In this document: positions 11,372 through 40,782 of the stretch, in pieces
How positions within the stretch are numbered: the stretch's first letter is position 1
How the letters are laid out: every line of letters starts with the position of its first letter
Assembly (NCBI GenBank): GCA_013815535.1
Contig: JACDGC010000002.1
Coordinates: 1-54,102 of the forward strand
Reading direction: 5' to 3'
Length of the DNA: 54,102 nt
DNA from: Ktedonobacterales bacterium
GTDB taxonomy: Bacteria; Chloroflexota; Ktedonobacteria; Ktedonobacterales; JACDGC01
Program-made: the position numbers and the translations under genes
Notes under the pieces: model-generated
Seen by the model: only the letters and a program-made list of their open reading frames with translations
The model's database searches: none
Told to the model about the DNA's origin: nothing

Positions 11372-11376
11372 ACCAA
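11372..11376. repeat. target-site duplication ACCAA (left copy)
   Basis: Identical pentamer immediately outside both transposon termini (11372-11376 and 40778-40782). Confidence 0.8.
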
Positions 11377-11444
11377 TGTCGGATCTCAGAATTCATGTCA
11401 CTAGTATCAGAATTCGTGGCACCACGTCTCAAAATTCGTGACAC
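11377..11444. repeat. tns-proximal end: three tightly phased TnsB-type binding-site repeats
   Basis: ATCTCAGAATTCATGTCAC (11383), GTATCAGAATTCGTGGCAC (11404) and GTCTCAAAATTCGTGACAC (11426), with 21-22 bp spacing. Confidence 0.8.
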
Positions 11445-11541
11445 TGGTCTCATCCTCAGGATCTCTGGCACAACCCCGCAATGTTCAAGCGGGAAGTAGT
11501 GAAGCGATTGCTGAGATTCCTGGCACACAAAGGAGGATGAG

Positions 11542-11596
11542 GTGATATGAATTCTGAGATCGGACATCCGGTGTCCGATCTCAGAATTCATGCGAC
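11542..11596. repeat. back-to-back transposon termini separated by 5 bp (internal junction)
   Basis: GTGATATGAATTCTGAGATCGGACA (ends 11566) + TCCGG + TGTCCGATCTCAGAATTCATGCGAC (starts 11572). This is a near-perfect 20+5+20 palindrome that includes the terminal ACA/TGT. Confidence 0.8.
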
Positions 11597-11672
11597 CATG
11601 CTCATGTGATTGCGGACAGATATGCCCCCATAGCGCAAAGAGGAAGGGCAGCTCTTAGCTATTGGTTCCTGC

Positions 11673-13877
11673 CTAACGGTATAACAGTTGTTCAGGGGTT
11701 ACTCCCAGCGCGACCGCCAGTCGCTCTACGGTTGGTTTGGTGGCTCGTCGCGTACAGTTTTCGAGTGTGCGGATGAACTCGGTGCGCATTCTCATTCTTC
11801 CGGCCAACTCCGTTTGGTCCCATTTCCGTCTCTTGCGCCACTCTGCAAGCAAAGGAACATACTGATTTTTTGGGAGGGCCACCAGCGTCCCATTCCATTC
11901 GCTGGCAAGCTGTTTCACCAGCGATTGAACTTGAGCGATGCGCTGCTGATGGTCGTGTTCATCCTCTCTTTGTGCAGATACGTCTGGCTCGGGTGATGCT
12001 CCCCTTCTTCGCTTTTTGGGAGTCGGCAAGGAGATGAGTGACCAGTGTTCACGCATCGCACTCAAGATGGAACGCCGCAATACAAGGAAATATTGGTCTC
12101 CAACACGGAGCCGTGCGGCGACCAACGTTGGAAGATACCGCTGCCACTCCTGCATCTCCCCAGCGGTCATCCCGTGTTCGCGTATCGCTTCGCCGGCAAA
12201 TTGATAGGTGGTGTGAAACCGCAGCACTGCCTGCCGTGGAATGACAGGCGCCGCAGTTCGTCCCGGTGACGCACGCAACAATCCCCGCTTGAGCAAGGTC
12301 GGAATACAAGCCACAGGACAGCCCAGGTCCTCGGCCACTTCCTCAGCGGTGCATTCTGTGGAGGGAGGATGCTCCACGAAGGACATGGTGGCCTCCACCA
12401 TCGCAGGGAGCGCCAGGACGTGGCAGAGACGCGAGCCCGGTTCTTCAACCCACAGTGGCAACCGGTGGACCAACACGGCCTCGATCAGGGCAGCGATACT
12501 ATCCGGCTCGTGGTCACACAGTCGGATACATGGGTCAGGACGTGCTGCCGCAGGAGCCTGAACGCAGGCCATGATTTGGTCAACCCCGGCCATGATGGCT
12601 TCCCATCTGAACCAGTAGATGAGCCGTGCCGCCGTCATCGCTAATCCCGCTGGGTGGAGAATATTCCGTTCCACGAGCCCATGGACGGTGGCCAGAGGCA
12701 CCCCCAGGATGTGTTCGGCGAGCCAGCGATCCATGACCCACTCGCCATGAGCAGGCTGGTGAGGCGGAAGTGTCACAAAGTACTGCTTCTTGAGGGCTGT
12801 GCGGGGACTCGGCGACCAGCGCCGTGCGGACGGTTGCCAGGATACGAGAGGACGTTCCTGGCGCAGGAAATCGGCGAAGGACTCGCGCAACCATGGGTAC
12901 GCTGGCGCGCGCTGGTGCCACTGCAACAACCAGCTCGAGAAGGCGACAAAGAGCCGTTCCTGATCCAGGGTGTGGAGGGTTTGCATGATACGAACGGGCC
13001 AGTGTGCCAGCAGGTCATAGCTGTAGGTGAGAATCGTACACCAGCGCGCAAAGTCGGGATAGTCGTAGCGCCCCCCTCCTCTTGCCGCGGTCCGCCGTTG
13101 CAGATGGCCCTCCGCCACTCCCGTATGCTTCCAGAAGAACTGACAGAGATCTTGCACGAATGCAAGGCTGAGCCAGTGTGGCAGCGCGTTCCAAGGCGCT
13201 TGCTGCCACACGGCTGGGAGCGGCGGCAAAGGGATCGTGTGGTTTCCTAGGCGATGCAGCAACCATAGGTTGCCGCTGTAGAGCATGGCCGGTGCCGCCA
13301 CAGCCACAACGGTTCGTAAATCGATGCCGCATGCGCCGCAATGAGCGAGATCGGGGCGCGTCATCGCCAAAGGCGCACCACAGGTCGGGCAGGCGTCGAG
13401 GAGCAGTGTCCCATGCCAGGGACAGGTGACGAGTTCCCGTAATCCCCAGTACACACGCCCGTAAGGAATCGGTCCCGCCAGACAACTTGGACAGACGCGC
13501 CCAGTCGGGTGGGGTAAGACGTAGTGTTTCAGCAAGTTCAACGGGAGGAAAGGATAATCCAGGGGCATCGCTTCTGCCACTTGTTGCTCAGCAGGACTCA
13601 ACCAACTCCGGCTCCACCGATGGACCGTGCAGGCTATGAGATCAGGAATGTCTTGATGGAGCAATTGCGCCAGCAACTGATAATCGCGATACCCGGTTAA
13701 GTGGGTGAGGGTGGCGGCGTGGATCTGATGCGTGCTGAGTTCAGGGCGCAAAATGAACGCCGTTTGCTGGTAGCCCATCGCGGTAGCACTTCGGCGCACC
13801 AGCGACTGGAGGTCTTCATCCGGTTGGCGTTCCACTCGGGCAGGCAGCGGAGCAGCGACGAACGGTGTAATCATCAT
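11673..13877 (-). CDS. tniQ: TniQ/TnsD-family target-selection protein with C-terminal XRE-type HTH (734 aa)
   Basis: ATG 13877 overlaps the tnsC TGA (ATGA). Cys-rich zinc-ribbon region CPSC..CPWH..CPTCGAP..CGACG. C-terminal WDQTELAGRMRMRTEFIRTLENCTRR..LAVALGVTPEQLLYR. Positioned after tnsC. Confidence 0.85.
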   Translation of the reverse strand: MMITPFVAAPLPARVERQPDEDLQSLVRRSATAMGYQQTAFILRPELSTHQIHAATLTHLTGYRDYQLLAQLLHQDIPDLIACTVHRWSRSWLSPAEQQVAEAMPLDYPFLPLNLLKHYVLPHPTGRVCPSCLAGPIPYGRVYWGLRELVTCPWHGTLLLDACPTCGAPLAMTRPDLAHCGACGIDLRTVVAVAAPAMLYSGNLWLLHRLGNHTIPLPPLPAVWQQAPWNALPHWLSLAFVQDLCQFFWKHTGVAEGHLQRRTAARGGGRYDYPDFARWCTILTYSYDLLAHWPVRIMQTLHTLDQERLFVAFSSWLLQWHQRAPAYPWLRESFADFLRQERPLVSWQPSARRWSPSPRTALKKQYFVTLPPHQPAHGEWVMDRWLAEHILGVPLATVHGLVERNILHPAGLAMTAARLIYWFRWEAIMAGVDQIMACVQAPAAARPDPCIRLCDHEPDSIAALIEAVLVHRLPLWVEEPGSRLCHVLALPAMVEATMSFVEHPPSTECTAEEVAEDLGCPVACIPTLLKRGLLRASPGRTAAPVIPRQAVLRFHTTYQFAGEAIREHGMTAGEMQEWQRYLPTLVAARLRVGDQYFLVLRRSILSAMREHWSLISLPTPKKRRRGASPEPDVSAQREDEHDHQQRIAQVQSLVKQLASEWNGTLVALPKNQYVPLLAEWRKRRKWDQTELAGRMRMRTEFIRTLENCTRRATKPTVERLAVALGVTPEQLLYR

Positions 13878-14806
13878 GCCCCCTTGAAGGCGGGGGTGAA
13901 GGGGTTGTCTTTGTTCTTGCCCATGATTGTCCCGGCCACACGCTCTTGATACGCCGCCGCGAGTAGTTCCAAAGAAATGCCATGGCACGGCGTGCGAATC
14001 GCGGCAAACGCCGCATGCCGCACGAGATGCATCACCCAGCCCAGGTAACCATTGGTGGCATAGAAGAAGCGATAGGCCATCGCTTCTTCGCCCAAGCCGC
14101 TGGGGTCGAGCGGTAACGCCGCATCGATGGTTCCCAGCAATTCACAGAATTCCGCAATGGTATCGTCCGGGCGAGCGCGATCCCACATGAAGGGGGTGAG
14201 CAGGCGCGGCGTGCCAAAACGCCGGTCGAGTTGGCTGTTGGCTGCGAAGATCTCCTGCATCTCCTGCGTGTGCCCAACGACGACCATCGGCACATGGGTT
14301 TCGAGTAAAATCGTCTTGAAGAAATCGGCCACCCGATGCGCGATTTGATGCTGCCGTTCTTTGTTGATGAGGTGCTGAAGTTCATCGATGATCACCATCT
14401 GGACTTGGCAGGCAGCCATCAGACGATAGATACGCATCGTCATGTTCCATTCCGTCCCGCGTGACGGGTTGGGATCGTGCAGCTTCGTCAGGATTGCCGC
14501 CGCCGCCGCTTTCATACTGGCATACGCCGGCACGATGACATAGAGATACGGAATGATCGTGGCCGTGGGAGTTTCTCGCTCGGGGGTGCGCGTCAGCCAA
14601 GTCCGTATCAAGGTCGATTTCCCCGCGCCGGTGTCGCCCATGATGGCAAGACACGGGGGCTCGTGGATACGGCTGGTGAGGCCGACCCGCGCGTACTGCG
14701 TGATCTCGCGGTACAGGGCATTAAACCGCTCATGCTCAATCAAGATGCTGTCGACCAGCGCGTAGCGCGCGTCGTCAGACAGGGCTTGCCATTCCTCGTG
14801 TTCCAT
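13874..14806 (-). CDS. tnsC: TnsC/TniB-type AAA+ transposition ATPase (310 aa)
   Basis: Walker A MGDTGAGKST and Walker B VQMVIIDELQHL. Size and position match TniB-like regulators. Confidence 0.85.
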   Translation of the reverse strand: MEHEEWQALSDDARYALVDSILIEHERFNALYREITQYARVGLTSRIHEPPCLAIMGDTGAGKSTLIRTWLTRTPERETPTATIIPYLYVIVPAYASMKAAAAAILTKLHDPNPSRGTEWNMTMRIYRLMAACQVQMVIIDELQHLINKERQHQIAHRVADFFKTILLETHVPMVVVGHTQEMQEIFAANSQLDRRFGTPRLLTPFMWDRARPDDTIAEFCELLGTIDAALPLDPSGLGEEAMAYRFFYATNGYLGWVMHLVRHAAFAAIRTPCHGISLELLAAAYQERVAGTIMGKNKDNPFTPAFKGA

Positions 14807-14809
14807 TAT

Positions 14810-17197
14810 TCAGACCTTTCGGCGCGGCAGCGTGTAGCTCACGGTCATCGTGGTAGGGCGCGCGGGAGGCGACAGCGGAACGGGAGCAGCCGACTCGACT
14901 GGTGCCATGGCCGCATCCGTTCCCGGTTTGCCACGCTTCTTGGGTTTGGGGGTCGGGGTGGCCTCCGGTTCGGCGGCAGGGAGGACCTCCAAGACGGGGG
15001 CCGCGACGTTGGCGAGCAACGTGACCCCTGCAACCATCTCAGGCAGCATGCTCCCATTGGTTGCGAGGGCGGCGATTCCCACCACCTCTGGGGACGCGAC
15101 CGTCGGTACCAGTGCGTCGCCGAAGGCGGGCGGAGTGGCCTGCGCGAGGGATAGCTCCTGGACCAGCGGGGCAGTACCTGCCGGGGGTGGCTGCAACCAC
15201 CCCGTGACCTGGAGATCGAACCAGCGCGCTGCACCCATGCGCGACTTCACCTGTTTCTTGCGGCGGAATTCATCCGTGATCTTGACATGGATGCGGTGCT
15301 TCGCTTCGAGCAAGGCTTCGAGATCAATGTCCTGGCGGAGTTCCTCGCGCGCGTACCGTTTGATCACGCGATGTTTCCACTGCGTGAGCTGGCGCGTGTA
15401 CTCTTGGAACTGGCGTGCCGCAGGGACTTCCAGATAGCGTTTGGTGAGCGGGTCCATGACCCAGATGCGCGCGAGGTCCCCCGGATTGTACTTGAACGAA
15501 ACCGCGATATCAACCAGGCGCTTCGCATCTCTGGTGCCTCTTCCCGGCTGCTGATCAAGGCGTGCCCGCAACCCCATGAGCGGGAGGCTAAAATAGCAGA
15601 TATCGTCAAACCAGATCCCCGTCCCCACAATGCAGCGGGTTTCGATGCGGGTGAGCAGCGTGAGCAGTTCCTCCCGATTCACCGGGAGGTGCGGCGTGAA
15701 ACGATCCACCAGGGCACGCTCCCACAGGCGGGCCGGCACCCCTTTCACGCGCCCGCGATGCGCGTCCTGGGTATAGACGTCGACAATCCACTGTATGCAG
15801 AGCTCCCACAAGCGATCCAAGGAGATGCAGGCATAGCGGGAGGGATCGTAATCGTCGCGCGCCAGGAAGTTGGAGAAGGTCGTCCCCGGCATAGTATGAA
15901 TCAGATCGGCCTGCATATCCCCGATGAACTTTTCGATCCCGCCTTTGAACCAGGGGGTACGGCGGGGCATACGGTGGACGGTGATTCCCAGTTGGTAACA
16001 GGCCAGTTCCACGTCGGTCGAGCGGAATTCGGGGCCGTTGTCGATGGCGAGCAACTCGGGAACGCCCCACGCCAAGTAGTCATGCTGGAGGCCAAACTGC
16101 GCCTTGAGGTGGGTCTTGGGCAGCATGCCGAAGCCCAGGCATTCCAGCACCGCACGCACGTTGGGGGGTTCGAACGAGATGCGCACCCCGGGCGGATAAT
16201 AGCTGTAGCGGTCGCGGAGCGCCGTAAATAATGGACGCCCAATTGGCAGCCCATCATCGGGATCAATCACGAGGTAATCGAGCTTCGTGTGGTCTTCTTC
16301 CCACCGTTCATTGGGACGTGTCGGCTCCGGGCCGCCATTGATGCCGGCATATTTGCGTTCGGTATGCGCGACGCCCAACCGTGCGATATCAATGTCTTCT
16401 TGATCCAACCGTTCGACGATCCGATACATCGTCGAACGGCTCGGCATGGGGATGTGCGTCTCCGCCGTGCGGGTCGTGTTTTTCGTAGCAATCCGGCTGC
16501 ACATCTCGTCATACGCTGTCTGGATCGTTGGCTGCTGGCGCTGCTTGTACACGTCTGTCAGGGCATCTTGAAAGGCGGTCTGGGCTTCGGGATGCAGGTG
16601 CGCTTTACGGCCTTGGCGTTCACGTCCGTGCCGCAGCGCGCGGGGATCGCCATGCGCGACGGTCAGCGCCTGTAACCACCGATAGACCGTCCGCAGCGCC
16701 AGCGTTGGCCGTCGTGCCGATGCCCCTTGCGTGGGATCGGTGCCTTTCGGTGCTGTGTGATGTGCATACGTGCGGAGCGTCAGCATCCAGGCTTCGGGTT
16801 GTTCATCGGCTTGCACCCTCAGCACTTCATCGATGCGGGCTTGGACCACCGCGTGCGTGCGGTGCCGTCGGGGGAGGGCGAGGAGTGGTTGACAGAACTG
16901 GTATTTTGCCCAGATGAGTATCCGCTCTGCTTCTGGCAGGAAATCCAGGTCGGTGAATGCATAGGATGTTGCCAGGGGCTGCGCGTCCTCCTGGCGCAGA
17001 TTGTTCCCGTGGAGCGCGAAGCGCAGCGTCCCGGCAAGCCAGGCATCGAGGAGGATCGCACGGGTCGTTCCGGTCTCATCATGCGTCATGAGATTGCGCG
17101 CGAAGATCGAGCCATCCCGCCCGGTGGCGATGATGCGATAGCCCACCCCTTGCAGGGTGTATTCCATGCCAGTTTCAAAGGCAACGGGTTGGGGCAT
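14810..17197 (-). CDS. tnsB: TnsB-type DDE (rve) transposase
   Basis: DDE triad context WEEDHTKLDYLVID / LAIDNGPEFRS / FKGGIEKFIG. ATG 17197 with GGAAAGGAG upstream. Pro/Ala-rich C-terminal tail. Confidence 0.9.
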   Translation of the reverse strand: MPQPVAFETGMEYTLQGVGYRIIATGRDGSIFARNLMTHDETGTTRAILLDAWLAGTLRFALHGNNLRQEDAQPLATSYAFTDLDFLPEAERILIWAKYQFCQPLLALPRRHRTHAVVQARIDEVLRVQADEQPEAWMLTLRTYAHHTAPKGTDPTQGASARRPTLALRTVYRWLQALTVAHGDPRALRHGRERQGRKAHLHPEAQTAFQDALTDVYKQRQQPTIQTAYDEMCSRIATKNTTRTAETHIPMPSRSTMYRIVERLDQEDIDIARLGVAHTERKYAGINGGPEPTRPNERWEEDHTKLDYLVIDPDDGLPIGRPLFTALRDRYSYYPPGVRISFEPPNVRAVLECLGFGMLPKTHLKAQFGLQHDYLAWGVPELLAIDNGPEFRSTDVELACYQLGITVHRMPRRTPWFKGGIEKFIGDMQADLIHTMPGTTFSNFLARDDYDPSRYACISLDRLWELCIQWIVDVYTQDAHRGRVKGVPARLWERALVDRFTPHLPVNREELLTLLTRIETRCIVGTGIWFDDICYFSLPLMGLRARLDQQPGRGTRDAKRLVDIAVSFKYNPGDLARIWVMDPLTKRYLEVPAARQFQEYTRQLTQWKHRVIKRYAREELRQDIDLEALLEAKHRIHVKITDEFRRKKQVKSRMGAARWFDLQVTGWLQPPPAGTAPLVQELSLAQATPPAFGDALVPTVASPEVVGIAALATNGSMLPEMVAGVTLLANVAAPVLEVLPAAEPEATPTPKPKKRGKPGTDAAMAPVESAAPVPLSPPARPTTMTVSYTLPRRKV

Positions 17198-17837
17198 CAG
17201 CGGCTCCTTTCCACGCGATGATCGTCTCGGCGAGATGCAGCGGCTGGGTGAGGTCGGCGGACAGGATGCCATCGTACAGCAGCGCCAGGACATGCGTGCG
17301 ATCTAGCAACGGATCGAGTTGGGGGCAGTGCTCCATGAGGGTGGCGATCGAGCACTGCCCCCCAATGTCGTGCATCACCCGGAGCACGATCTCCCGCACC
17401 TCCGGTGGCACGGGATGATGGGCATGACTCAGGAGCAGACGCAGATTGTCGAGCAGGGGGGCGAAAGGAAGAAGCGTGGCATCGGTCACCACCACGAACG
17501 TCCACTGCTGTGCGGCACACCATAGCCGCGCCGCCGTCCACTTGAGGGCATTTTTGGGGTCGCTTACCTGATGTTGCGGCTTGCATTCCACGAGGGTCGT
17601 GGTCCCGCTCCGCCAGCGCACGAGTACGTCAGGGGTGTAAGGATGATCGTGGTGATTGGCGCGGTAGCGAATAGTACAGGGCTGCTCCTCGTACCATACG
17701 ACCTCGGGGGCATACTCAATGAGGCGAATGTAACGTTCCTCAATCAGACTCTCGAAATGGACCATCCGCCCTAATTTGCGACTGGGGACACCACCAATGA
17801 TGTTGTGCCCAATCTGCTGCACCTGGCGTACAGGCAT
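17175..17837 (-). CDS. tnsA: TnsA endonuclease
   Basis: FESLIEERYIRLIE...YTPDVLVRW...TLVECKP (restriction-endonuclease-like E/D/K core). ATG 17837 is preceded by AGGAAAGGAGGAAAACG. The 3' end overlaps tnsB by 23 nt. Confidence 0.85.
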   Translation of the reverse strand: MPVRQVQQIGHNIIGGVPSRKLGRMVHFESLIEERYIRLIEYAPEVVWYEEQPCTIRYRANHHDHPYTPDVLVRWRSGTTTLVECKPQHQVSDPKNALKWTAARLWCAAQQWTFVVVTDATLLPFAPLLDNLRLLLSHAHHPVPPEVREIVLRVMHDIGGQCSIATLMEHCPQLDPLLDRTHVLALLYDGILSADLTQPLHLAETIIAWKGAADAPTRCL

Positions 17838-18150
17838 CGTTTTCCTCCTTTCCTGGCGCGGGTCTTCAGCACCATCAACGCATTCCCGCGCCTTTTTGTT
17901 GGATAGCGCCAAGAGGAGCACAGGGTAGCTGGGAAGGGCATGTCCGAGCATGATTGGTGGCCAGAAAGGCGGCGTGCATGGCATGCGCTTGTCCCCTCAT
18001 CTCTGCTTGGCATCGCAGGTTGGAAGCGCACGCCTCGCACTGCTGTTCCACCCGGGAAACGGTGCACTGCACAACGTTTCGATGTGCGGCCTAGATCATG
18101 CGCTTCATCCCCTGGCTAACCGCTCTGAGCATCTTGCACTTCAACCATGC

Positions 18151-19509
18151 CTACCTCATACGCTGCTGTGTACACCAGACCTGCGCGACCATTTGGATCG
18201 GATCCCAAGGACTGCTCAGCGGCGGCGTATAACTGAGATCGAGGTCGCTGAGCTGCTCAATCCGCAGGTCCTGGTAGAGTGCGGTGGCGATGATATCGAT
18301 GCGCTTGGCCACTTCGCTGCCCCACGCCCCCAGGATTTGCGCGCCCAACACCCGCCCACTCATGCGATCGCCGGTGAGACGCAGCACCAGTTCCCGTGCG
18401 CCGGGATAGTAGACCTTGTGGTCCCAGGTCGTCAGATCCACCGAGAGTGGATCATAGCCCGCAGCCCGCGCCTCATGTTCCAGTAAGCCCGTGCGTGCCA
18501 CGACCACGTCACAGACTTTGACGGCCTGGGTCCCTACCGACCCCGCGAAGAGCCGATGGCCGCCGACCGCATTTTCCCCTGCGACGCGCCCCTGCTTGTG
18601 GGCGGTGGTCCCCAGGGGGAGATAGGTTGGCTCGGCCAAGAGCCGATGATGCGTCTCGACACAATCCCCGGCGGCGAAGACATCGGGCAGGGTCGTCGCC
18701 ATGGTGCGCGTGACGCGTAGCGCGCCGTCCGCACCCAGGGGGACGCCAGCGGCACGCGCCAGGGCCGTGGCGGGTTGCACGCCCGTCGCCACCAGCACCA
18801 ACTCTGCCGCCCAGCGTTGGTCAGCCTGCCCCACGACATGCAACTGGCCATCGTGCGGAACAATCTGGGTGGCGGTGGCCCCGGTGACGATCTGGACGCC
18901 ATGACGTCCCAATTCCGCCGCGATGCGGTCACCGAAAACCGCATCGACCGATGGGTGAATTTGGGCACCCCGTTGCAAGAGGGTCGTGGCGATGCCTTTG
19001 CTGGCGAGGGCTTCGGCCATCTCCAAGCCGATATACCCCGCTCCGACGATGATGGCGGACTGCGGAGGATGCTCTTCTAGGTGCCGCTTCACCGCGAAGC
19101 TGTCATCCATCGTGTGCAGCAGATAGACGCCCTCTTGATCGAGGCCCGCAATCGCGGGACGGTGGGGGGTCGCTCCGGTGCCGATGACGAGGCGATCATA
19201 GGCGATGGCCTGGGTGCCGCCCTGGCGATCCTGCACCGTGACGGTCTTGGCACCAGGGTCGATGTGGGTCGCCGTGTGGTCGAGCAACAAATGGATGCCC
19301 ACCGCTTCGATGTCCGCGCGGGTACGATGGGCCAGGTGGTGCCAGTCCGCGACCTCGCCACTCAAGAAATAGGGCAGACCGCAGATACTGAAATTAGGAT
19401 AGGCATCGGCGACGACCATGGTCACCTGCCAGGAAGCATCGACTTCGCGGGCACGCAGAGCGGCACTGATGCCCGCGTCACTGCCGCCGATGATGAGTAA
19501 ATGGGGCAC
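18151..19509 (-). CDS. CoA-disulfide reductase / NADH-oxidase-family pyridine nucleotide-disulfide oxidoreductase
   Basis: IIGGSDAGISAA FAD fold. Redox Cys in PNFSICGLPYF. Second Rossmann motif IVGAGYIGLEMAEA. C-terminal dimerisation domain. Confidence 0.85.
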   Translation of the reverse strand: MPHLLIIGGSDAGISAALRAREVDASWQVTMVVADAYPNFSICGLPYFLSGEVADWHHLAHRTRADIEAVGIHLLLDHTATHIDPGAKTVTVQDRQGGTQAIAYDRLVIGTGATPHRPAIAGLDQEGVYLLHTMDDSFAVKRHLEEHPPQSAIIVGAGYIGLEMAEALASKGIATTLLQRGAQIHPSVDAVFGDRIAAELGRHGVQIVTGATATQIVPHDGQLHVVGQADQRWAAELVLVATGVQPATALARAAGVPLGADGALRVTRTMATTLPDVFAAGDCVETHHRLLAEPTYLPLGTTAHKQGRVAGENAVGGHRLFAGSVGTQAVKVCDVVVARTGLLEHEARAAGYDPLSVDLTTWDHKVYYPGARELVLRLTGDRMSGRVLGAQILGAWGSEVAKRIDIIATALYQDLRIEQLSDLDLSYTPPLSSPWDPIQMVAQVWCTQQRMR

Positions 19510-20403
19510 TTACTGGACCTCACGGTGCTTGGCTTGCTGGGCCAACCAGGACCAGCAGGCGAAATAGAGGGCATCACGCACGGCACGAAATGCCCGGAGT
19601 TGTTCCATAGGACTGCCCACGACGGCAGCGGGGTCAGGGAAGCTCCAGTGTTCCCGCCGAGCTGGGCCGGGGAAGGTGGGACACGTTTCCGCCGCTTGAT
19701 CGCAGACGGTGATGACATAGTCAAAGGGGTGATGGAGGAATTCATCGACGGACTTGGAGCGGTGTCCGCGAATGTCGATGCCGCGCTCATCCATGACCGC
19801 GATGGCCAGCGGATGCACGTGGCTCGGATGCGTCCCCGCGCTGGCCACCTCGTAGCGCGTCCCTCCCAGATAGCGCAACCACGCCTCACCCATTTGTGAG
19901 CGGGCGGAATTACCCGTGCAGACGACCAAGATGCGGACATGGTCCGCATCGGTCGTTCCCAGGGCGGGTGGCGGGATGGCCTCGGTGGGGGAGGCTTGGC
20001 CCAGCCAGAGTCGTAGTCGCACCAGAATGAGGTCGCGTGTGTGGCGGAAGGCATTGAGCTTCGTCGCCTCGTCGCCCTGGACGCTGGTCGGGTCAGCGAA
20101 GCCCCAGTGCAGTTGCTCGCGCGCCCCGGCAAAGACCGGGCATTCCTCGGCGGCAGAGTCGCAGACCGTCACCACCACATCGAAGGGCTGCCCCTGATAG
20201 ACACTGAGGGCATGGCTGCCTTGCCCCGTAATGTCGATACCGAGTTCGGCCATGACCTGCACCGAGAGGGAATGGATGCCCGTCGGATGCGTGCCCGCGC
20301 TGAACGCGGTGTAGCGGTCGGGGGCCAGCCAATTGAGCAACCCTTGCGCCATTTGGGACCGGGCCGAATTGTGGGTGCAGAGAAAGAGGATCCGCTGGGT
20401 CAT
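19510..20403 (-). CDS. arsC: tandem (two-domain) LMW-PTP-type arsenate reductase
   Basis: Two complete repeats, each with CT(H/G)NSARSQ (CX5R) and TVCD..A.E.C. ATG 20403 overlaps the aquaporin stop. The long 5' extension of the track ORF is out of context. Confidence 0.85.
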
Positions 20404-21149
20404 GCTGTGCCTGCCTTTCCGTCTCCGCTGGCTACACGCAGCCAGCGATAGGTGAGCGCGGCAAGGGCCGCACCCAGAAAGGGCGCGGTGAGGTAGACCC
20501 ACAGTGCCGTCCAGGTGCCGCTCACCAACGCCGGTGCCAGCGAGCGCGCCGGATTCATCGACGCGCCGGAGATCGGTCCGGCGAAGAGGGCTTCCAGACC
20601 CACCGTCGCCCCGATGGCGAGGGCCGCCGCTTGCCCTACGGCGCGGGTGTCGGTCGCCACCGCCATGATGACAAACATCAGGAAGAAGGTCAGAATCACC
20701 TCGAAGCCGAACGCCTGCCAGGGATTGCCCACCGGAAGCGTCGTGCCCAGGAGCGCGACATTGCCCAGTAACAAGCGCAGTGCCCCCGCCGCCAGTGTTG
20801 CCCCGGCGAGTTGCGCGCCCCAGTAACTCAGTACGCGCGGCCAGGGCAGGTGGCGCGCCAGGGCAAAGCCGAGCGTTACGGCAGGATTGAAGTGCGCGCC
20901 GCTCAGATGTCCGGTCGCGTAGATCATCGCGGTGATAATGAGCCCAAAGACGATGCTCACCCCGACATGAGTCACCTGCCCATGCGAGAGGGTGTCGATC
21001 ATGATCGCTCCACACCCGGCGAAGACCAGGCCGAAGGTGCCAATCCCTTCCGCCACCAAAGCCGGGACCAGGGCAGGGAGCGGCGGTGAGGCGGTTTGCG
21101 CGTCATCCGCCTCTGGGGTGTGTGACCGAGCCAGCGTCGAAGCGGCCAT
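20400..21149 (-). CDS. MIP-family aquaporin/aquaglyceroporin (AqpS-like arsenite channel by context)
   Basis: Two NPA boxes ([18 protein letters not shown]) and six TM segments. ATG 21149. Confidence 0.85.
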
Positions 21150-21199
21150 AGGACAGGAACTCCTTGGGAGAAAGGCCGTCGCCTTCCTTGTATATTTTT

Positions 21200-21217
21200 C
21201 ATCAAATGAGATTGATG
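21200..21217. promoter_or_regulatory. 6-6-6 inverted repeat CATCAA-ATGAGA-TTGATG upstream of the aquaporin-arsC operon (possible ArsR operator)
   Basis: Perfect 6-bp arms in the AT-rich intergenic region 21150-21284. Assignment is by context only. Confidence 0.25.
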
Positions 21218-21284
21218 GATTGCAGACAGAGCATACCTTACCTGCGCCCGTTTGTCGAGGGGCGCGTGACCGTGTCATCGCGGC

Positions 21285-21932: not shown

Positions 21933-21946
21933 CGCATCCCTCTTTC

Positions 21947-33054: not shown

Positions 33055-33093
33055 CTCACACCCTGCACCAGCCTTTCTGGCTCAGGGTGTGAG
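33055..33093. terminator. 11-bp stem-loop between convergent genes
   Basis: CTCACACCCTG-(17 nt)-CAGGGTGTGAG. No clear U tract. Confidence 0.35.
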
Positions 33094-33125
33094 GTGAGCT
33101 GTGCGTTAGCAATCAGCGGGTGGAG

Positions 33126-33221: not shown

Positions 33222-33675
33222 ATGGATTTTCCTTCAGTGAAGTGAGGCCAATACAGCGCCCGTCCGTACAGGTGCTGAATGGCGCGGTACTCGTCGGGGG
33301 ACAAGCCACGATGGCTTGCCGATACTGTTGGACCTCCGCACGCAAAGCCGCCAGCGCCCCCATTTCCTGATCAATCGCCGCCAATCGCTGGGTGATCACG
33401 GCCAGCAAGCGGCGCTGCACCTCCGCGCAGCGGGCGGTGTCCGATCCGGTCAGGAGGGTCTTGATGTCAGCGAGGGAGGCTCCCAGGTGGCGGATGCGGC
33501 GCAGGAGGTGCAGCCGGGCGCAATCAGCGGAGCCATAGCGCCGATACTGATTCGTGCCGCGCTGCGGAGGGGGCAATACGCCGATAGCTTCGTAGTAGCG
33601 AATCACTTTCGCGTTGACGCCGGTTAGCTGCGCCAACTGGCCAATCGTGAAGTCGTCAGGGTCGCGTCGCATCAT
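33190..33675 (-). CDS. MerR-family transcriptional regulator
   Basis: FTIGQLAQLTGVNAKVIRYYEAIGVLPPPQRGTNQYRRY, a coiled-coil dimerisation helix and a Cys-containing C-terminus. Confidence 0.85.
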   Translation of the reverse strand: MMRRDPDDFTIGQLAQLTGVNAKVIRYYEAIGVLPPPQRGTNQYRRYGSADCARLHLLRRIRHLGASLADIKTLLTGSDTARCAEVQRRLLAVITQRLAAIDQEMGALAALRAEVQQYRQAIVACPPTSTAPFSTCTDGRCIGLTSLKENPYDDDAHLCCV

Positions 33676-33734
33676 GTTCCTCCTCTAAAACACACCGTAC
33701 ACCTTCCCAGCGTGGGAAGGTCAAGAGCCGCCGA

Positions 33735-34931: not shown

Positions 34932-36252
34932 GAGTGGCTCCCAGCACCGGGATGGCCTTCCCTTGCCACTTTGGGGCCACGGTGACGACGGGGTCGCAAC
35001 AGCCGCCCCCATCCGTTGAGCAGACGCCCGTTTCTGGTAACACCAATTGCACCTGCCGGGCACCAGCCAGATCCCCGGTGAGGGCACAGGCAATCGACCG
35101 CACCTGTTCATAGCCCGTGAGCATCAGGAAGGTTGGCGCGCGGCCATAGCTCTTCATCCCGACGATGAAGAAATCCGCTTCGGGGTGCTGCAATTCCTCA
35201 TAGCCATGCGGTGGCACGGTGCCGCAACTGTGGACATTGGGATCGATCAGGGGCGCCAGCGCGCGCGGACTCTCGACCGACGGATCGAGGTCCAGCCGTA
35301 ACTCGCGCGTCAGTTCGAGATCGGGGCGAAAGCCGGTGGCGACGATCAGTTCGTCGACATGGGGCAGATCGCCATGCGTGGTCGAGGCGACGATGCCTGC
35401 CTTCGTCAGGCGCACCCGTTCGATGGCGCTGTCGGTGTGCCGTTCGACCACACCCGCATCGATGACCCTTTGCAGGCGCTGACCCAACTGGCCGCGCGCG
35501 GGCAGGGCATCGGTGTCACCCCCCCCGAACAGCGTCCCCAGTGTGGCGCGGCGCACCGCCCAGACGATGCGTGTCGTCGGTTCCTGCTCCGCGAGGCGTG
35601 CGAGGTCCAAGAGGGCGTTGAAGGCGGAATGACCGCTGCCCACGACCAGCACGCGCTTCCCCGCGTAGCGCGCTCGCGCCGTCCCCAACACATCGGGAAT
35701 GCCGTAGGCGACACGAACGCCAAGCTTGGCTTCGCCAAGCGCGGGCAGCCCATTGGCCCCCAGCGGGTTGGGTTGGGCATACGTGCCGGAAGCGTCGATG
35801 ACCGCACAGGCCAGCACCTGCGTCGTCGCTCCAGCGGCTCCTCGGATCGTCAGCACAAATGGCGCGGCTTCACGGCCCGGCGTCTTCATTTTGTCGTAGC
35901 CCTGGCGCGCGACGGCGACCACCCGCGCGCCTAGGTGCAGATGCGGTGCGATGGTGGGTAAAGCCGCCAGGGGCCGCAGGTACTGATCAACGAGTTCCTG
36001 ACCCGTTGGCAAGGCTTCGGGATCGGGATCGCGCCAACCCGCCGCGTGGAGCAGGTCAGCGGCGGCGGCATCGATGAGATAGCGCCAGGGCGAGAAGAGG
36101 CGCACATGCCCCCATTCCGCGACGGCTGCCCCGACCTCGGTGCCGGCCTCGAAGATGATGGGCGTCGCCCCACGCGCCAGGAGTTGGGCCGCGGCGGCGA
36201 GGCCAACGGGACCGCCACCGATGATGGCGATGGGCAAAGTGGAGGTGTTCAT
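34924..36252 (-). CDS. FAD/NAD(P)-binding oxidoreductase (two-dinucleotide-fold flavoprotein; ArsO/FMO-like, tentative)
   Basis: IIGGGPVGLAAA and VLVVGSGHSAFNA Rossmann motifs. Cys cluster CSTDGGGCCD near the C-terminus. ATG 36252. Confidence 0.8.
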   Translation of the reverse strand: MNTSTLPIAIIGGGPVGLAAAAQLLARGATPIIFEAGTEVGAAVAEWGHVRLFSPWRYLIDAAAADLLHAAGWRDPDPEALPTGQELVDQYLRPLAALPTIAPHLHLGARVVAVARQGYDKMKTPGREAAPFVLTIRGAAGATTQVLACAVIDASGTYAQPNPLGANGLPALGEAKLGVRVAYGIPDVLGTARARYAGKRVLVVGSGHSAFNALLDLARLAEQEPTTRIVWAVRRATLGTLFGGGDTDALPARGQLGQRLQRVIDAGVVERHTDSAIERVRLTKAGIVASTTHGDLPHVDELIVATGFRPDLELTRELRLDLDPSVESPRALAPLIDPNVHSCGTVPPHGYEELQHPEADFFIVGMKSYGRAPTFLMLTGYEQVRSIACALTGDLAGARQVQLVLPETGVCSTDGGGCCDPVVTVAPKWQGKAIPVLGATRG

Positions 36253-36265
36253 TCGGATGGTCCTT

Positions 36266-37438
36266 TCAGATAGCCGCGAGACCCGTTGCCAGGTCCGCGA
36301 TGATATCATTGGCGTCTTCGATGCCCACCGAGAGCCGCAACAGGCCATCGGTGATGCCCGCCGCTAGGCGACGCTCGCGCGGCACGGCGGCATGGGTCAT
36401 CGACGCGGAATGTTGGATGAGGGTCGCCACATCGCCCAGGGAAACCGCCAATTGACACAGCGTCAGGTGATCGATGAGGCGCTGGCCGGCGCTGAGGTCG
36501 GCGACCTCGAAGGCGAGCATGCCGCCGCACCCGGTCATCTGGCGTGCCGCGAGCGCCTGCTGGGGATGGGTGGGTAAGCCTGGGTAGGCAACCTGTTGTA
36601 CCTGGGGGTGCCCCGCGAGGAACTGGGCGACGGCGAGGGCATTGGCGTTGTACTGTACCATGCGCAGGGCCAGCGTCTTGATGCCGCGCAGCACGAGCCA
36701 GGCCGTCTGCGGAGCGATGACCCCACCCAGAATCTTGTGGATACGCCAGCGGGCGTCATGGACGAAGGCGGCGGGACCCACGATGGCCCCAGCGGTCAGA
36801 TCGCCGTGGCCGCCCAGATATTTCGTGGCGCTGTGCACCACGATATCGACCCCCCAGTGCAAGGGTTGTTGGTTGTACGGGGTGGCGAAGGTGTTGTCCA
36901 TCACGGTCGTGATGCCGTGGGCCCGCGCCACCGCCACGACCGCTGCCATGTCCACGAGTTGGAGGCGGGGGTTGGCCGGCGATTCGAGATACAGCACCTT
37001 CGTCGTTGGACGAATGGCAGCGGCATACGCGGCAGGATCCGTGGCATCGACATAGGTGACGGCGACGCCCCAGGGGGTGAGCACCTCATCGAGCAGAGCG
37101 GTGGTGGTCGCGTACATCGCCAGCGGCGCGACCACATGGTCGCCGGGCCGTAGCAGCGTCAGGAAGGTGGTGGTGATGGCGGCCATCCCTGATGCCAGGG
37201 CCAGGGCGGCCTCACCGCCTTCCAGCGCGCAGAGCGCCGCTTCCAAGGCGGCTTGCGTCGGATTCCCCATGCGGCCATAGAAATAGCCGGGCTGCTCGCC
37301 GGCGTGGATCGCCGCCCCCTGTGCGGCATCGGGGAAAGCGAAGACCGCGGCATCATAGATCGGGGTCGAGAGGGCACCAAAGTGTGCGGCGGGATCTTCG
37401 CCCGCATGCACCATCGGGGTCTCGCGTGCGTAGGCCAT
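36266..37438 (-). CDS. PLP-dependent Cys/Met-metabolism enzyme (cystathionine gamma-synthase/lyase, methionine gamma-lyase family)
   Basis: HSATKYLGGHGD (PLP-Lys), RLSVGIED and STPIY motifs. GGAGGA lies 6 nt before ATG 37438. Confidence 0.85.
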   Translation of the reverse strand: MAYARETPMVHAGEDPAAHFGALSTPIYDAAVFAFPDAAQGAAIHAGEQPGYFYGRMGNPTQAALEAALCALEGGEAALALASGMAAITTTFLTLLRPGDHVVAPLAMYATTTALLDEVLTPWGVAVTYVDATDPAAYAAAIRPTTKVLYLESPANPRLQLVDMAAVVAVARAHGITTVMDNTFATPYNQQPLHWGVDIVVHSATKYLGGHGDLTAGAIVGPAAFVHDARWRIHKILGGVIAPQTAWLVLRGIKTLALRMVQYNANALAVAQFLAGHPQVQQVAYPGLPTHPQQALAARQMTGCGGMLAFEVADLSAGQRLIDHLTLCQLAVSLGDVATLIQHSASMTHAAVPRERRLAAGITDGLLRLSVGIEDANDIIADLATGLAAI

Positions 37439-37501
37439 GCTGTCCTCCATTCATTGATAGATATCGATGGGTTACGGCAAAAAAGGGGAGTGCATGGGCG
37501 C

Positions 37502-37852
37502 TTACCCCAAGGACAATGCTACTATCAGGGCGCGCTGCCCCGCGTCGGTCACCCAATAATATGCCCAAACACCGCGCTTTTCACAGTCGACGAAGCGTGC
37601 CTCGCGTAACAGCCGCAGATGATGGCTAATCGTCGGCTGATGTTGATCGAATTGGGCGGTGATGTCACAGACACACAGCGGCTCCGTCTGCTGCGCCAGT
37701 AAGCTCAGCATGCGTAACCGCGTCGGATCCGCCAACGCCTTGAGGGCCTCGGCCAGCCGTAGGGCGGTGTCGGGTGCCAGGGTCGGCGGTGCCCCAGGGG
37801 GGCAGCACCCATTGGGTGCAAGCACCGAGACGGGAGGTGTGTTGGTGTTCAC
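37502..37852 (-). CDS. arsR: ArsR/SmtB-family metalloregulator
   Basis: LADPTRLRMLSLL...PLCVCDITAQF...TISHHLRLLREARFV. The CVC metal site is in the helix-3 position. GTG 37852 avoids overlap with the upstream gene. Confidence 0.8.
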   Translation of the reverse strand: MNTNTPPVSVLAPNGCCPPGAPPTLAPDTALRLAEALKALADPTRLRMLSLLAQQTEPLCVCDITAQFDQHQPTISHHLRLLREARFVDCEKRGVWAYYWVTDAGQRALIVALSLG

Positions 37853-37858
37853 AGGCCG

Positions 37859-37887
37859 ATGATAGCATATATATCGAAGATTGTCAA
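37859..37887 (-). promoter_or_regulatory. sigma70-type promoter TTGACA-N17-TATCAT immediately upstream of arsR (leaderless or near-leaderless)
   Basis: On the minus strand, -35 TTGACA (37887-37882), a 17-nt spacer and -10 TATCAT (37864-37859). The GTG start is only 6 nt downstream. The spacer contains the imperfect inverted repeat ATATCGAAGA/TTGTCAATAT, a possible ArsR operator. Confidence 0.45.
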
Positions 37888-37911
37888 TATAGGGGGGCAA
37901 GGCCGTTTGAC

Positions 37912-39999
37912 CTAGGACGCTGCAAGTGGTGCCAAGCGGGAGAGAACATCGGCCTGTGTCCAAGGACGAATGCACAATTCGCCATGGGTTTGCTCTTTGA
38001 GTGCTGCGGCTACGGTCGCAACTTCTGAAGAGCGTGGTGTGGCGGTCAACCCTGGCTCGGGCGTTTGTGTCAAAAGATATTGGACGTGCAAGAAAGCATG
38101 CGTTTCCTCACATGCCGCTAACGCACCGCGTAAATTGCTCCACCACCGTGCGTTGTCTGATTGCAATGTCAACAGGCGTAACAGGACGAGAATGCACGTT
38201 GCATAATCATGTAAGCCGGCAAAGCAATCTGCAAGATAGGCCAGGTGAGTCGTTTCCATTTCCGGTAAGAGTTCCGCATAACAGCTAATCGCTTGCCGAT
38301 ACCACCCCTGTTGCTGATAGAGGTGGCCTAAACGATGCACGATATAGCGTTCGGGCGTTGCGGCCTGTGCTTGCTCGAATAGACGAATCGCGGCGTCGTG
38401 GTGTCCTTCATCAGCAAGCATACTTCCATAATAGAATAGCGAAGCTGTTGAGGCATCGTCAGTGAGCTTCGTGGCTCCCACCAGTTCACGTGCCTGAGCA
38501 TCGGCCCCGTTAGCGCGATACACTAAATATAATTCTTTGACGATGAACATATCCTGTGGCTCACTGGCAAGCCATTGCTGGTAGGCACGCACGGCCACTT
38601 CGCCATAGGTGAGATCGCTGCGCCAGAGATGGCTGAGGGAAAGGGCGAGCAGTCGCAGCGCACGCCGATGTTCGGGCCGCAGGTCGACGGTGTGCTGCGC
38701 CCAATGTGCAGCAGTCGCGAAATCTTCACATTGATACGAGGCATACGCCAAGGCATAAGCTTCAGCGGGCATCTGCTGGACGGCTGGTATCCTGGCAAAT
38801 GCTTCGAGGAGCAGGTGTTGGGCATGACTTGGCTGGCCGCAACGAACCTCCGTCGCCGCCCAACAGCTCAGTGCTTGCCACCGCATTGGATCGCGTTGTA
38901 ATGCCGCGGCATATGCCGCATATTCTTCCTCATGGCGGCCCAAATGAAAAAGACACACGCCTTTGTTCGTCAATACTTGGCCCGCGAGCAACGCATCGGG
39001 ATCATGGGAGAGCGCATCATCATAATGAAGTAAGGCCTCTTCATAATAACCCAGTGCCTTGAGCGCATTGCCGTGGTTGTAATCGTTGTGGACTTTGGGC
39101 GGATAAGCGAGTTGCGCGCCAAGTGCGGCGAAAATTGCGGTAGCTTCCACGAGTAAGTGACGAGGTACTGGCGTGTGGGTATTCGTGTATTCGGTGAGAA
39201 TGCTGGCGCGAGTCCCCAGGTACTCGATCCCCACAGCGCCTTTGGCTTGGGCGGCGTTGATCGCGTGGAACGCATCATCAATAGCGTCACGCTCATACGC
39301 GAGCTTCGCGATAGCGAGATCGATCCGCCAATTCTGTGGTGCTTGGGCCGCTGCCGTCTGTAAGCGGGCGAGCATTGCGAGCTGTTGAGCAGAAAGTGGC
39401 AGCAGCGTTGGTTTCCGGGGAACAGGGGTGCCCGGTTGCGGCACCCCCTGAGCAATGTACGGATCAGGTTGGGCCAACTGCACCTGTTGTTCCTGCTCAA
39501 GATGCTGTCCGAGCCTGCGATAGGCGGCATCCAACACAACAGGTAATGTGCCAAGCTCGCCGCGTTGCAGCATGTGCGTGGCGGGAACAGGAATCGTGCG
39601 CATCCCGGCTCCTGTCAGCCACTGGGGATTGGCAGCAAGTTGGGCGGCAATCACCGGCTGGATATGCACCCAATACCCGCATTCGCGTGTGATGTCCCAC
39701 AGCACCAGGAACACTGGCCAGAGGATACGTTGCCATTGGCGTAAATGGACGACTTTTACGCGATACTGATACCCTTGTTTGTGCCCATATTTACTCACAT
39801 CATCGGTACTCTTGAGTTGAATGTACCCATCTTTGCCCGTCATCTCTCCCTGATGAAACGGATGGAGCAGAAAATCTTGCCCGTAATCGGCGGAAATCTT
39901 CGTCACACTCCATTGTGCCCGCTGAAAGCAGGCGCTTACCTGTGATTCACCGAGTTCATTGAAGATGTGTTGGAACGGTTTGCGTGAAGCGGCTGCCAT
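37912..39999 (-). CDS. DUF4365-like (PD-(D/E)xK-type) N-terminal domain fused to a long TPR array (695 aa)
   Basis: N-terminal GESQVSACFQRAQWSV..DYGQDFLL..GYIQLKSTD matches the DUF4365 pattern. About 400 aa of TPR-like repeats follow (EEALLHYDDAL, YAAYAAALQ, AAIRLFEQA, QAISCYAEL). Confidence 0.75.
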   Translation of the reverse strand: MAAASRKPFQHIFNELGESQVSACFQRAQWSVTKISADYGQDFLLHPFHQGEMTGKDGYIQLKSTDDVSKYGHKQGYQYRVKVVHLRQWQRILWPVFLVLWDITRECGYWVHIQPVIAAQLAANPQWLTGAGMRTIPVPATHMLQRGELGTLPVVLDAAYRRLGQHLEQEQQVQLAQPDPYIAQGVPQPGTPVPRKPTLLPLSAQQLAMLARLQTAAAQAPQNWRIDLAIAKLAYERDAIDDAFHAINAAQAKGAVGIEYLGTRASILTEYTNTHTPVPRHLLVEATAIFAALGAQLAYPPKVHNDYNHGNALKALGYYEEALLHYDDALSHDPDALLAGQVLTNKGVCLFHLGRHEEEYAAYAAALQRDPMRWQALSCWAATEVRCGQPSHAQHLLLEAFARIPAVQQMPAEAYALAYASYQCEDFATAAHWAQHTVDLRPEHRRALRLLALSLSHLWRSDLTYGEVAVRAYQQWLASEPQDMFIVKELYLVYRANGADAQARELVGATKLTDDASTASLFYYGSMLADEGHHDAAIRLFEQAQAATPERYIVHRLGHLYQQQGWYRQAISCYAELLPEMETTHLAYLADCFAGLHDYATCILVLLRLLTLQSDNARWWSNLRGALAACEETHAFLHVQYLLTQTPEPGLTATPRSSEVATVAAALKEQTHGELCIRPWTQADVLSRLAPLAAS

Positions 40000-40087
40000 A
40001 CCCCATCCTTAGTTCGTGAACTGACTTTACCGTAGCATATCCCCTGTGTCCGTGTTGTTTCACAGGACCAAAAGGCCAGCGGCTCAG

Positions 40088-40372
40088 CTATTTGTCGTAG
40101 CAGGCGTCTCCCGTCCAAAGCACCTTTTCCAAGGAGCGGGGAGGGAGCGGGTCCTTACGCAAGGGTTGGCGGATTCCCTGCCACCAACCCACATCATGCC
40201 ATGCTCCCAGTTTGTACCCTACTTGGCGGTAGACACCCAACTTCCCTATTCCCATCGCTTCATGGAGGGCAATACTGGCCGGATTGGGCAAGGCAAAGCT
40301 CGCGAAGACCTGATAGAACCCTTGGCCAGTCTTTGAAATTACCCACATACGCGATGCTCTGCTCATCCCCAA
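40088..40372 (-). pseudogene. 3' remnant of a GNAT N-acetyltransferase (phosphinothricin/ArsN-type)
   Basis: ...NPASIALHEAMGIGKLGVYRQVGYKLGAWHDVGWWQ matches the C-terminus of PAT-like GNATs. The N-terminal half is missing or out of frame in 40373-40620. Confidence 0.5.
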
Positions 40373-40656
40373 AGAACCAGTGTCGCAGATTTCATCGCAG
40401 TTACCCTCGATTCCCGTCTGCTCTCAGTGATAATTCACTGCTGCCTGAAATGCGGTGCGTTCTTGGAAGTCTACAAAGTGGTAGCGGGCAAAATGGATGT
40501 CGGGCCAAACGTGCTTCATACCTCGCCAACACAGATATATTGAATAATCCGCTCATTGGGAAAATACCGAGGCGCTCCGCGATTTATGACCATGATTCCA
40601 GCTACTGGTGCCTCCCTGTTCGCTTTACCTGATCACCTGCTCACTTTTTTGGGGTA

Positions 40657-40777
40657 GTGGCACGAATTCTGAGATTTCCAGTGGGTAGTGTCAGATTTTC
40701 TGAGACGCAGTGACACGAATTTTGAGATTATCGGCACCAAATCCCCCCTTTAGTGACATGAATTCTGAGATCGGACA
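40657..40777. repeat. tns-distal end: four spaced TnsB-type binding-site repeats
   Basis: GTGGCACGAATTCTGAGATT (40657), GTGTCAGATTTTCTGAGAC (40688), GTGACACGAATTTTGAGATT (40710) and GTGACATGAATTCTGAGATCGGACA (40754-40777). Confidence 0.8.
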
Positions 40778-40782
40778 ACCAA
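40778..40782. repeat. target-site duplication ACCAA (right copy)
   Basis: Identical to 11372-11376. Confidence 0.8.

Follow-up and report, generated by a model that had tools for sequence, protein, structure and literature searches.

Tn7 of Escherichia coli encodes a heteromeric transposase composed of TnsA and TnsB, an AAA+ regulator (TnsC), and a DNA-binding target selector of the TnsD type that carries a TniQ domain. Its termini read 5′-TGT…ACA-3′, its ends hold asymmetric arrays of ~20-bp TnsB sites, and its insertions are marked by a 5-bp duplication; the right end is, by convention, the one that lies upstream of the tns genes, and in Tn7 itself these genes start just inside it, where the sites are also tightly packed (PMC11406308). 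The same set of proteins, the same type of termini and site arrays, and the same length of duplication were found in an element that we analyzed in a 54,102-nucleotide stretch of DNA (hereafter, the window) from a Ktedonobacterales bacterium of the phylum Chloroflexota (assembly GCA_013815535.1, contig JACDGC010000002.1, positions 1–54,102). The element spans positions 11377–40777 (29.4 kb) and is likely a composite cut-and-paste transposon of the Tn7 family, from a clade confined to Chloroflexota, that last moved by way of its outer ends.

Several features set the element apart from Tn7. It has no tnsE, its TniQ (733 amino acids, aa) has a C-terminal half that is private to the element, and its tightly phased sites occupy the left end (the tniQ side), with the spaced sites at the right end. 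The cargo is located between tnsA and the right end rather than past the targeting genes, and its layout is consequently not that of Tn7 sensu stricto, in which the tns genes sit just inside the right end. Furthermore, its TnsB is only distantly similar to that of Tn7. In phmmer comparisons to solved TnsB proteins, the E-values were 2.5e-58 for PseCAST, 1e-41 for Tn6677, 7e-20 for ShCAST, and 1.6e-8 for Tn7. The closest solved TnsB, TnsC (4e-26, VchTnsC of Tn6677), and TniQ (2.4e-6) were thus those of CRISPR-associated transposons (CASTs), but no Cas domains were present in the cargo open reading frames (ORFs) and no spaced repeat (CRISPR) array in the window, which excluded identity as a CAST; targeting would therefore be protein-based and not RNA-guided. 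The Tn5053/Tn402 family likewise has TniA/TniB/TniQ-type proteins and multi-site ends, but its members lack TnsA, possess a resolvase and a res site, and transpose replicatively, whereas the window element has tnsA, and the scanned ORFs showed no resolvase domain.

A further parallel comes from Tn6022 and the AbaR islands of Acinetobacter, where insertions within or adjacent to resident copies occur despite target immunity and have generated multiple ends and a diversity of islands (PMC11014353); insertion next to or inside a resident Tn7-like element has been described as a source of multiple ends (PMC8649781). One relative of the window element, L001, sits in comM, the attachment gene of Tn6022. 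The window element itself, unlike Tn6022, is intergenic rather than in comM and belongs to a different clade and host phylum, and neither a tyrosine recombinase nor a dif-like module was seen in the window.

Outer Ends and Target-Site Duplication

Both boundaries could be placed to the base. The element opens with TGT at 11377 and closes with ACA at 40777, and its 27-bp terminal inverted repeats are identical at 26 positions, the sole mismatch being at position 5 (G versus C). The functional left end, Y (11377–11448, forward strand, tniQ side), combines the 5′-TGT terminus with three TnsB-type sites in 21–22 bp phase, which a position-weight scan placed at 11377–11405, 11398–11426, and 11420–11448 and which Tandem Repeats Finder independently reported as 3.2 copies of period 21. 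The right end, X, which by the above convention lies upstream of the tns genes (40653–40777, reverse strand, ACA-3′ at 40777), has three strong, spaced sites in the same scan (40653–40681, 40706–40734, and 40749–40777) and a weak fourth site at 40684–40712 (10.7 bits). Several subterminal repeats, arranged differently at the two ends, are characteristic of Tn7-like elements. Neither pattern is expected in the window by chance: the 21-nt terminus pattern had four matches (0.01 expected) and the 19-nt site pattern eight (0.00 expected).

Both termini are flanked by ACCAA, at 11372–11376 on the left and 40778–40782 on the right, and 5-bp duplications were also present in the relatives L029 and L030. 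The chance of such identity between 5-mers at two random positions is 1.2–1.3e-3, and because the 10 bp outside each copy do not agree between the two sides, ACCAA does not belong to a longer native repeat, a possibility that the first-pass annotation of this DNA had raised against its own reading. That annotation had proposed a Tn7-like transposon with exact ends, beginning in TGT and ending in ACA, with 27-bp inverted repeats, three phased sites on the left and four spaced sites on the right, and ACCAA pentamers at both termini. All of these features were recovered at the coordinates it gave, with the qualification that one of the four right-end sites is weak, and the termini, site arrays, and 5-bp duplication that define a Tn7-like element are present, as is its set of proteins (below). 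What it missed is that the left end is compound and contains a second pair of termini.

A Compound Left End

Of the four terminus matches, two lie inside the element, where they face each other, one ending in ACA at 11566 and the other beginning with TGT at 11572, separated by the five bases TCCGG (11567–11571). They divide the element into two units. The first, on the forward strand at 11377–11566, is a gene-less miniature element of 190 bp with three left-type sites, a 46-bp core, and two right-type sites, one weak (11495–11523) and one strong (11538–11566), the latter terminating in the ACA at 11566. These right-type sites are spaced 43 bp apart, as are the two outermost sites of the true right end. 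When the tip is left aside, the right arm of the miniature shares only 73% identity with the true right end, and the miniature is therefore a diverged, gene-less relative and not a recent duplication. It may be a non-autonomous derivative akin to miniature inverted-repeat transposable elements: both terminal arrays lie within its 190 bp, but its flanks are mismatched (ACCAA/TCCGG). The terminus search of genome and metagenome contigs described below revealed no other copy.

The second unit, at 11572–40777 (29,206 bp), carries all of the genes. Its inner terminus, which we designate y′ (11572–11600, forward strand), has a complete tip (TGTCCGATCTCAGAATTCATG, 21/21) and a single binding site, so that on the tniQ side this unit has one site only. 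Moreover, this site is altered in its binding half (GTCGCA in place of GTGACA), and no further site of at least 3 bits was found beside it in 11597–11690, a stretch that takes in the stop codon of tniQ, 72 bp from the inner left terminus.

The flanks of the two units bear on which of them moved last. Like the miniature, the gene-bearing unit has unmatched flanks (TCCGG/ACCAA); only the outermost pair matches. Since the outer ends alone carry a matching duplication, it is the composite that appears to have moved last. The TCCGG spacer has the length of a target-site duplication and, by analogy with the relative L030 (below), is probably the duplication left by an earlier tandem insertion.

Transposition Genes

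The four transposition genes are on the minus strand beside the left end (11.7–18.0 kb), where they form an intact operon that reads toward that end. The first, tnsA (17175–17984, exact start uncertain), encodes the endonuclease subunit. It matches Tn7_TnsA-like_N (PF08722, 1.5e-17), its PD-(D/E)xK motif (YTPD…VECKP) aligns to TnsA of PseCAST, and it scored 7.9e-21 against NCBIfam TnsA_like_Actin, yet under the cutoff of that model. It is followed by tnsB (14810–17197), which encodes a DDE transposase of 795 aa as called, the longest ORF reaching 17293, and by tnsC (13874–14806), which encodes a TniB-type AAA+ regulator of 310 aa (PF05621, 2.4e-27). The start codon of tniQ (11673–13874) overlaps the tnsC stop codon by 1 nt. 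Its product, a TnsD-like target selector (Pfam TniQ PF06527, 6.7e-9), has an N-terminal zinc ribbon, internal helix-turn-helix (HTH)-like repeats, and a C-terminal XRE-type HTH (HTH_31/HTH_3). The zinc-ribbon core is 35% identical to that of a TniQ from L001.

These assignments bear out the presence of tnsA, tnsB, tnsC, and tniQ inside the element, as the first-pass annotation had claimed, and the full set of proteins expected of a Tn7-like element is present: TnsA, a DDE-type TnsB, TnsC/TniB, and a TniQ selector. The annotation had also suggested that failure of the four ORFs to match profile hidden Markov models of these families would count against it. Here the outcome was mixed, in that TnsA, TniB, and TniQ all matched Pfam, whereas TnsB fell below threshold (rve, E = 0.033; Mu-transpos_C, 0.0027). 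This miss touches on the annotation's own ground for doubt; the identity of TnsB is still clear from its matches to solved TnsB proteins, with which its catalytic positions (DHT, DNG, and IEKF) align. In an alignment of nine clade members, D302, D386, and E422 were invariant. All four ORFs are uninterrupted and have lengths comparable to those of relatives.

A Clade of Tn7-Like Elements in Chloroflexota

The closest TnsB among 5.8 billion clustered proteins was 40% identical, and a profile scan of 185,579 species genomes returned 26 loci, all of them in Chloroflexota. Judged by these sequence comparisons, the element belongs to a previously uncharacterized clade of the Tn7 family that is restricted to this phylum. 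TnsB sequences from Ktedonobacter robiniae, which has several copies located at contig ends, were 43–46% identical to that of the window, and those from metagenome-assembled genomes of Ktedonobacteraceae, Anaerolineae, and Chloroflexia were 32–37% identical. The order tnsA-tnsB-tnsC-tniQ was kept in all relatives.

The Anaerolineae-type elements are compact (5–8 kb), with a right end 250–290 bp upstream of tnsA and a left end just past tniQ; L029, for example, has TGT…ACA termini and a CCATT duplication. Considered together, the compact elements (L029, L030, and L008) and the K. robiniae copies (L005, L006, L027, and L028) share with the window element their gene order, related site motifs (…TGAGATCCTACA tips), 5-bp duplications (CCATT, GCATC), and extra termini beside the tniQ-side end, including, in L030, a head-to-head miniature. 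They differ from it in TnsB (32–46% identical) and in the C-terminal regions of TniQ, which are unrelated to that of the window; the compact elements differ also in their size, in the absence of cargo, and in the proximity of the right end to tnsA.

Cargo placement follows a division within the clade. Other genes immediately precede tnsA on its upstream side in L001, L031, the P0006 contig, and K. robiniae, and the location of the cargo upstream of tnsA in the window is therefore typical of a closer subclade and not a local rearrangement. A lost right end adjoining tnsA was likewise excluded, in that no site remnant (none of at least 3 bits) was found upstream of that gene.

Several of the relatives had peculiarities of their own. 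The 40%-identical relative in L001 sits inside a comM/YifB Mg-chelatase-like gene (17896–18379), its left end abutting the genuine comM reading frame, and L001 encodes two long paralogues of TniQ (767 and 700 aa). At 1900–17300 of L002/L003, three successive tns modules are present on one contig, with tnsA, tnsB, and tnsC repeated and some of them truncated or fused, in what is a tandem pile-up of related elements. On the P0006 contig, a gene for a tyrosine recombinase (Phage_integrase) immediately adjoins tnsA on its upstream side in divergent orientation, and in L031 (1725–2582) such a gene is also divergent and upstream of tnsA, with a sigma-70-like gene between the two. These recombinase genes recall the modules described for Tn6022.

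Extra Termini in Relatives

The parallels to the compound left end can be read directly in related elements. In L030, the full element (322–5459) is bounded by GCATC on both sides, and after GCATC and TT (7 bp) comes a 95-bp miniature, from TGT at 5467 to ACA at 5561, head to head with the full element. This arrangement is a fresh version of the inner junction in the window.

A more decayed arrangement was found in K. robiniae, where the region past tniQ consists of one y′-like forward site (…CCCCACA), a spacer of ~25 bp, two inverted sites, and four forward sites that extend to the terminus (L005:11344). The four copies are 99.7% identical and their homology stops exactly at this outer terminus, while a paralogous, uninterrupted copy of the target matches from the very next base. 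Because the homology ends at the outer terminus and the intact target begins at the adjacent base, the decayed composite must have moved as a unit in K. robiniae. The uninterrupted target copy is inverted, 276 bp long, and 7 kb away (L005 4235–4510 versus 11345–11619), and a tandem duplication of ~211 bp follows the occupied copy (11617–12053). These 276-bp inverted repeats were excluded as element ends, as they are target DNA outside the terminus. Four contigs of this assembly end inside element copies.

Second left-end remnants were found 10 bp beyond the first in L031 and ~140 bp beyond the first in L027, and an inverted copy abuts the left end in L021. In total, extra termini adjoin the tniQ-side end in roughly half of the independent elements inspected, namely those of the window, K. 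robiniae, L030, L031, L027, and L021, and the compact relatives L029, L008, L011, L016, and L019 had plain tniQ-side ends with no inner pair. A possible decayed inner junction in L001 is a weak match, made by eye only. Where the composite moved, in the window and K. robiniae, the inner end has a single site, whereas L030, the full element of which has a duplication of its own, retains an intact inner end of three sites.

Origin of the Compound End

By the mechanism known from the family, TnsB would bind the ~20-bp site arrays at both ends, pair the ends, and cleave and join their 3′ strands at TGT/ACA, and TnsA would cut the 5′ strands. The AAA+ protein TnsC would couple this transposase to the long, DNA-binding TniQ, which would be the chooser of the target, and joining with a 5-bp stagger would give rise to the ACCAA duplication. 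On these terms the order of events would be as follows. A 190-bp miniature would have been resident at an earlier site, and the gene-bearing unit would then have inserted at exactly the same position with its right end toward the target, such that its y′ came to face the right terminus of the miniature, x′, across the duplicated TCCGG. Orientation-specific homing to one attachment site predicts just such a series: target, duplication, new element, duplication, old element. Subsequently, the own left end of the gene-bearing unit would have been reduced to a single site and may have lost function, and in a later move the right end at 40777 would have been used together with the three-site left end of the miniature at 11377, carrying both units and TCCGG to the present intergenic site. 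The reduction of its own left end to one site would explain why the outer end was the one used for transposition.

Several points weigh against this sequence of events. No empty site and no second copy was present in any collection searched, and the gene nearest to the insertion is an orphan; the evidence for the insertion event is consequently entirely internal to the locus. The earlier site with TCCGG was not observed. In K. robiniae the inner site is 79 bp past the tniQ stop, as compared to 72 bp in the window, and so similar a distance could reflect an inherited or functional layout rather than a repeated accident. Additionally, target immunity of the strength known from Tn7 would, if it holds here, speak against insertion of the gene-bearing unit beside a resident end.

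The similar layout in K. robiniae is also an argument for a different explanation, in which 11377–40777 is a single, non-composite element and the inner facing pair is a built-in, selected feature of the left end that coevolves with TnsB and is not a tandem scar. Such a feature could be a palindromic site for TnsB binding or regulation, or an RNA hairpin that closes the tns operon. The series of forward site, inverted sites, and true end is common to both lineages, whose TnsB sequences are 43–46% identical, the inner copies show almost no decay in the window, and the junction folds as a perfect 20-bp hairpin (z = −4.3). However, the pair is absent from the five compact relatives with plain ends, and in L030 the miniature lies outside a full element with a duplication of its own and is thus a separate element. 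Furthermore, the inner copies in the window hold the complete cleavage tip (TGTCCGAT), unlike internal binding sites 2 and 3, and the spacer is exactly of duplication length. An intrinsic terminator at the junction was unsupported, as there is no T-tract beside the hairpin, which is thus not a canonical terminator. We regard a built-in pair as unlikely.

The matching ACCAA copies could alternatively be coincidental, had two unrelated neighboring insertions occurred and the last event involved the 29.2-kb or the 190-bp unit alone, in which case 11377–40777 would never have moved as a whole. L030 does demonstrate that insertion next to a resident miniature is possible for a full element, which there has a duplication of its own. 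In the window, however, the 5-bp flanks of each subunit disagree, the outer pair agrees at 5/5 positions (p about 1.3e-3), and y′ has one site only; in K. robiniae, as seen above, the composite moved as a unit, its four copies being 99.7% identical up to the outer terminus. This explanation is very improbable.

Equally improbable is that the inner junction is a relic of an end-joined (circularized or dimeric) excised transposon, its 5 bp derived from donor-flank overhangs after TnsA cleavage: a spacer of a few bp between abutted ends is the expected product of end-joining an excised Tn7-type element, TnsA of Tn7 cuts 3 nt outside each end, and end-joining systems are frequent in hosts of this phylum, but the arms of the miniature have diverged from the ends of the large unit (73%), so that the junction joins two different elements, the L030 spacer contains the verified duplication of the full element, as fits tandem insertion, and no circular form is known for TnsA-containing elements.

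A composite assembled by tandem insertion and last moved via its outer ends is the reading we favor. It is plausible that the element is still mobile, as the first-pass annotation had supposed, given its intact ORFs, near-perfect ends, and intact duplication.

Insertion Site, Target Selection, and Surroundings

A 20-mer from the terminus had no hits in genome contigs (185k genomes) or metagenome contigs, collections that do not contain the window itself. A 24-mer spanning the empty site also had no hits in metagenome contigs, in an exact-match search that would miss a diverged empty site. The left flank had no match in E. coli genomes and the tns region none in plasmids, and a route to the empty site via proteins was closed in that the nearest flank protein matched only itself. 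No tRNA, tmRNA, or Rfam family was detected in the window and the rebuilt empty junction (…TTCGACCCAACCAAGCTACCTG…) restored no convincing ORF; the insertion is therefore intergenic. It is located 173 bp upstream of an orphan XRE-like gene.

As to how this site was chosen, a word-indexed search returned no TniQ relatives below 1e-8, whereas an exhaustive HMMER search of 1.84 billion representative proteins returned nine below 1e-30. In all nine, the best-scoring stretch was the N-terminal ~340 residues. Because no comparator shares the C-terminal half, the DNA-binding half of TniQ is private to the element and its target is not inferable by comparison.

Immediately to the left of the insertion (9752–11203), the orphan XRE-like HTH gene (10487–11203), which had no homolog in 5.8 billion clustered proteins, is followed by a gene for a weakly matching M78 (ImmA/IrrE-like) peptidase. 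The two make up an ImmR/ImmA-type pair, as is typical of prophages and integrative and conjugative elements. In the right flank, ~330 bp outside the right end (41108–41168), are three tandem copies of a 20-bp unit (TTTACGCGAAGGTTCGAAAA), which may serve as an array for protein binding or belong to an attachment signal. Beyond them are two CrcB fluoride-channel genes (41743–43094), one of which is fused to a Usp domain; no fluoride riboswitch reached the Rfam threshold in the window. Farther away, the left part of the contig encodes an 857-aa STAND NTPase-TPR protein (341–2914). At its other end is an IS21-type pair (51883–54008), IstA-like (rve and Mu-transpos_C_2, 506 aa) and IstB-like (196 aa), the latter probably truncated by the contig end. 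The pair is preceded by a CHC2 zinc-finger (DnaG-type) protein (51202–51840), and its surroundings look like accessory or mobile DNA.

Cargo

The cargo, which the first-pass annotation had put at about 22.8 kb, comprises 22,668 bp (17985–40652), all of it between the right-end sites and tnsA. It includes arsenic and phosphate genes. Among its products are ArsR, a thioredoxin-type ArsC, an ArsO-like flavoenzyme, an MIP aquaporin, an MFS transporter, and a CoA-disulfide-reductase-like enzyme, together with PstSCAB and PhoB-like regulators. The remainder includes an ArsR-phosphatase fusion, MerR, a HisKA_3/LuxR pair, a Cys/Met enzyme dependent on pyridoxal phosphate (PLP), and a DUF4365-TPR protein. 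A second transposition module at 34.9–40.0 kb was excluded, since the ORFs there encode a flavoenzyme, the PLP enzyme, ArsR, and the DUF4365-TPR protein.

Two of these genes warrant comment. The gene adjoining the right end (37912–39999) encodes the 695-aa DUF4365-TPR protein, the N-terminal domain of which matches a PADLOC model of an Aga-type restriction endonuclease (6e-10), such that it is possibly a defense gene. At 19510–21278, the ORF for the MIP aquaglyceroporin (20400–21278) overlaps, in another frame, a 501-aa ORF with the thioredoxin-type ArsC at its C-terminus. This overlap could represent a channel-ArsC fusion, a frameshift, or an over-extended ORF.

Implications

The process that the compound end exemplifies, in well-preserved form, has been documented before, and the current understanding of the family is unchanged. 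Under the favored reading, one molecule would record two successive transpositions, the inner duplication marking the earlier and the outer duplication the latest, and the end illustrates how Tn7-like elements swap or borrow ends and build islands. Less probably, and only as a speculation that we hold to be rather unlikely, landing beside a resident end is favored in this Chloroflexota clade, instead of being just a leak in target immunity, and the inner termini are kept functional too. If so, three mobile units (the miniature, the gene-bearing unit, and the composite) would be nested at this locus, and autonomous elements that become crippled would be rescued as a matter of routine by taking over an end from a neighboring miniature.

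For the family, the window provides a base-exact and apparently intact member of an uncharacterized, Chloroflexota-only Tn7 clade, with defined ends and proteins for experiments. The C-terminal half of its TniQ, which had no detectable relative among the 1.84 billion representative proteins, could define a new protein-guided attachment specificity.

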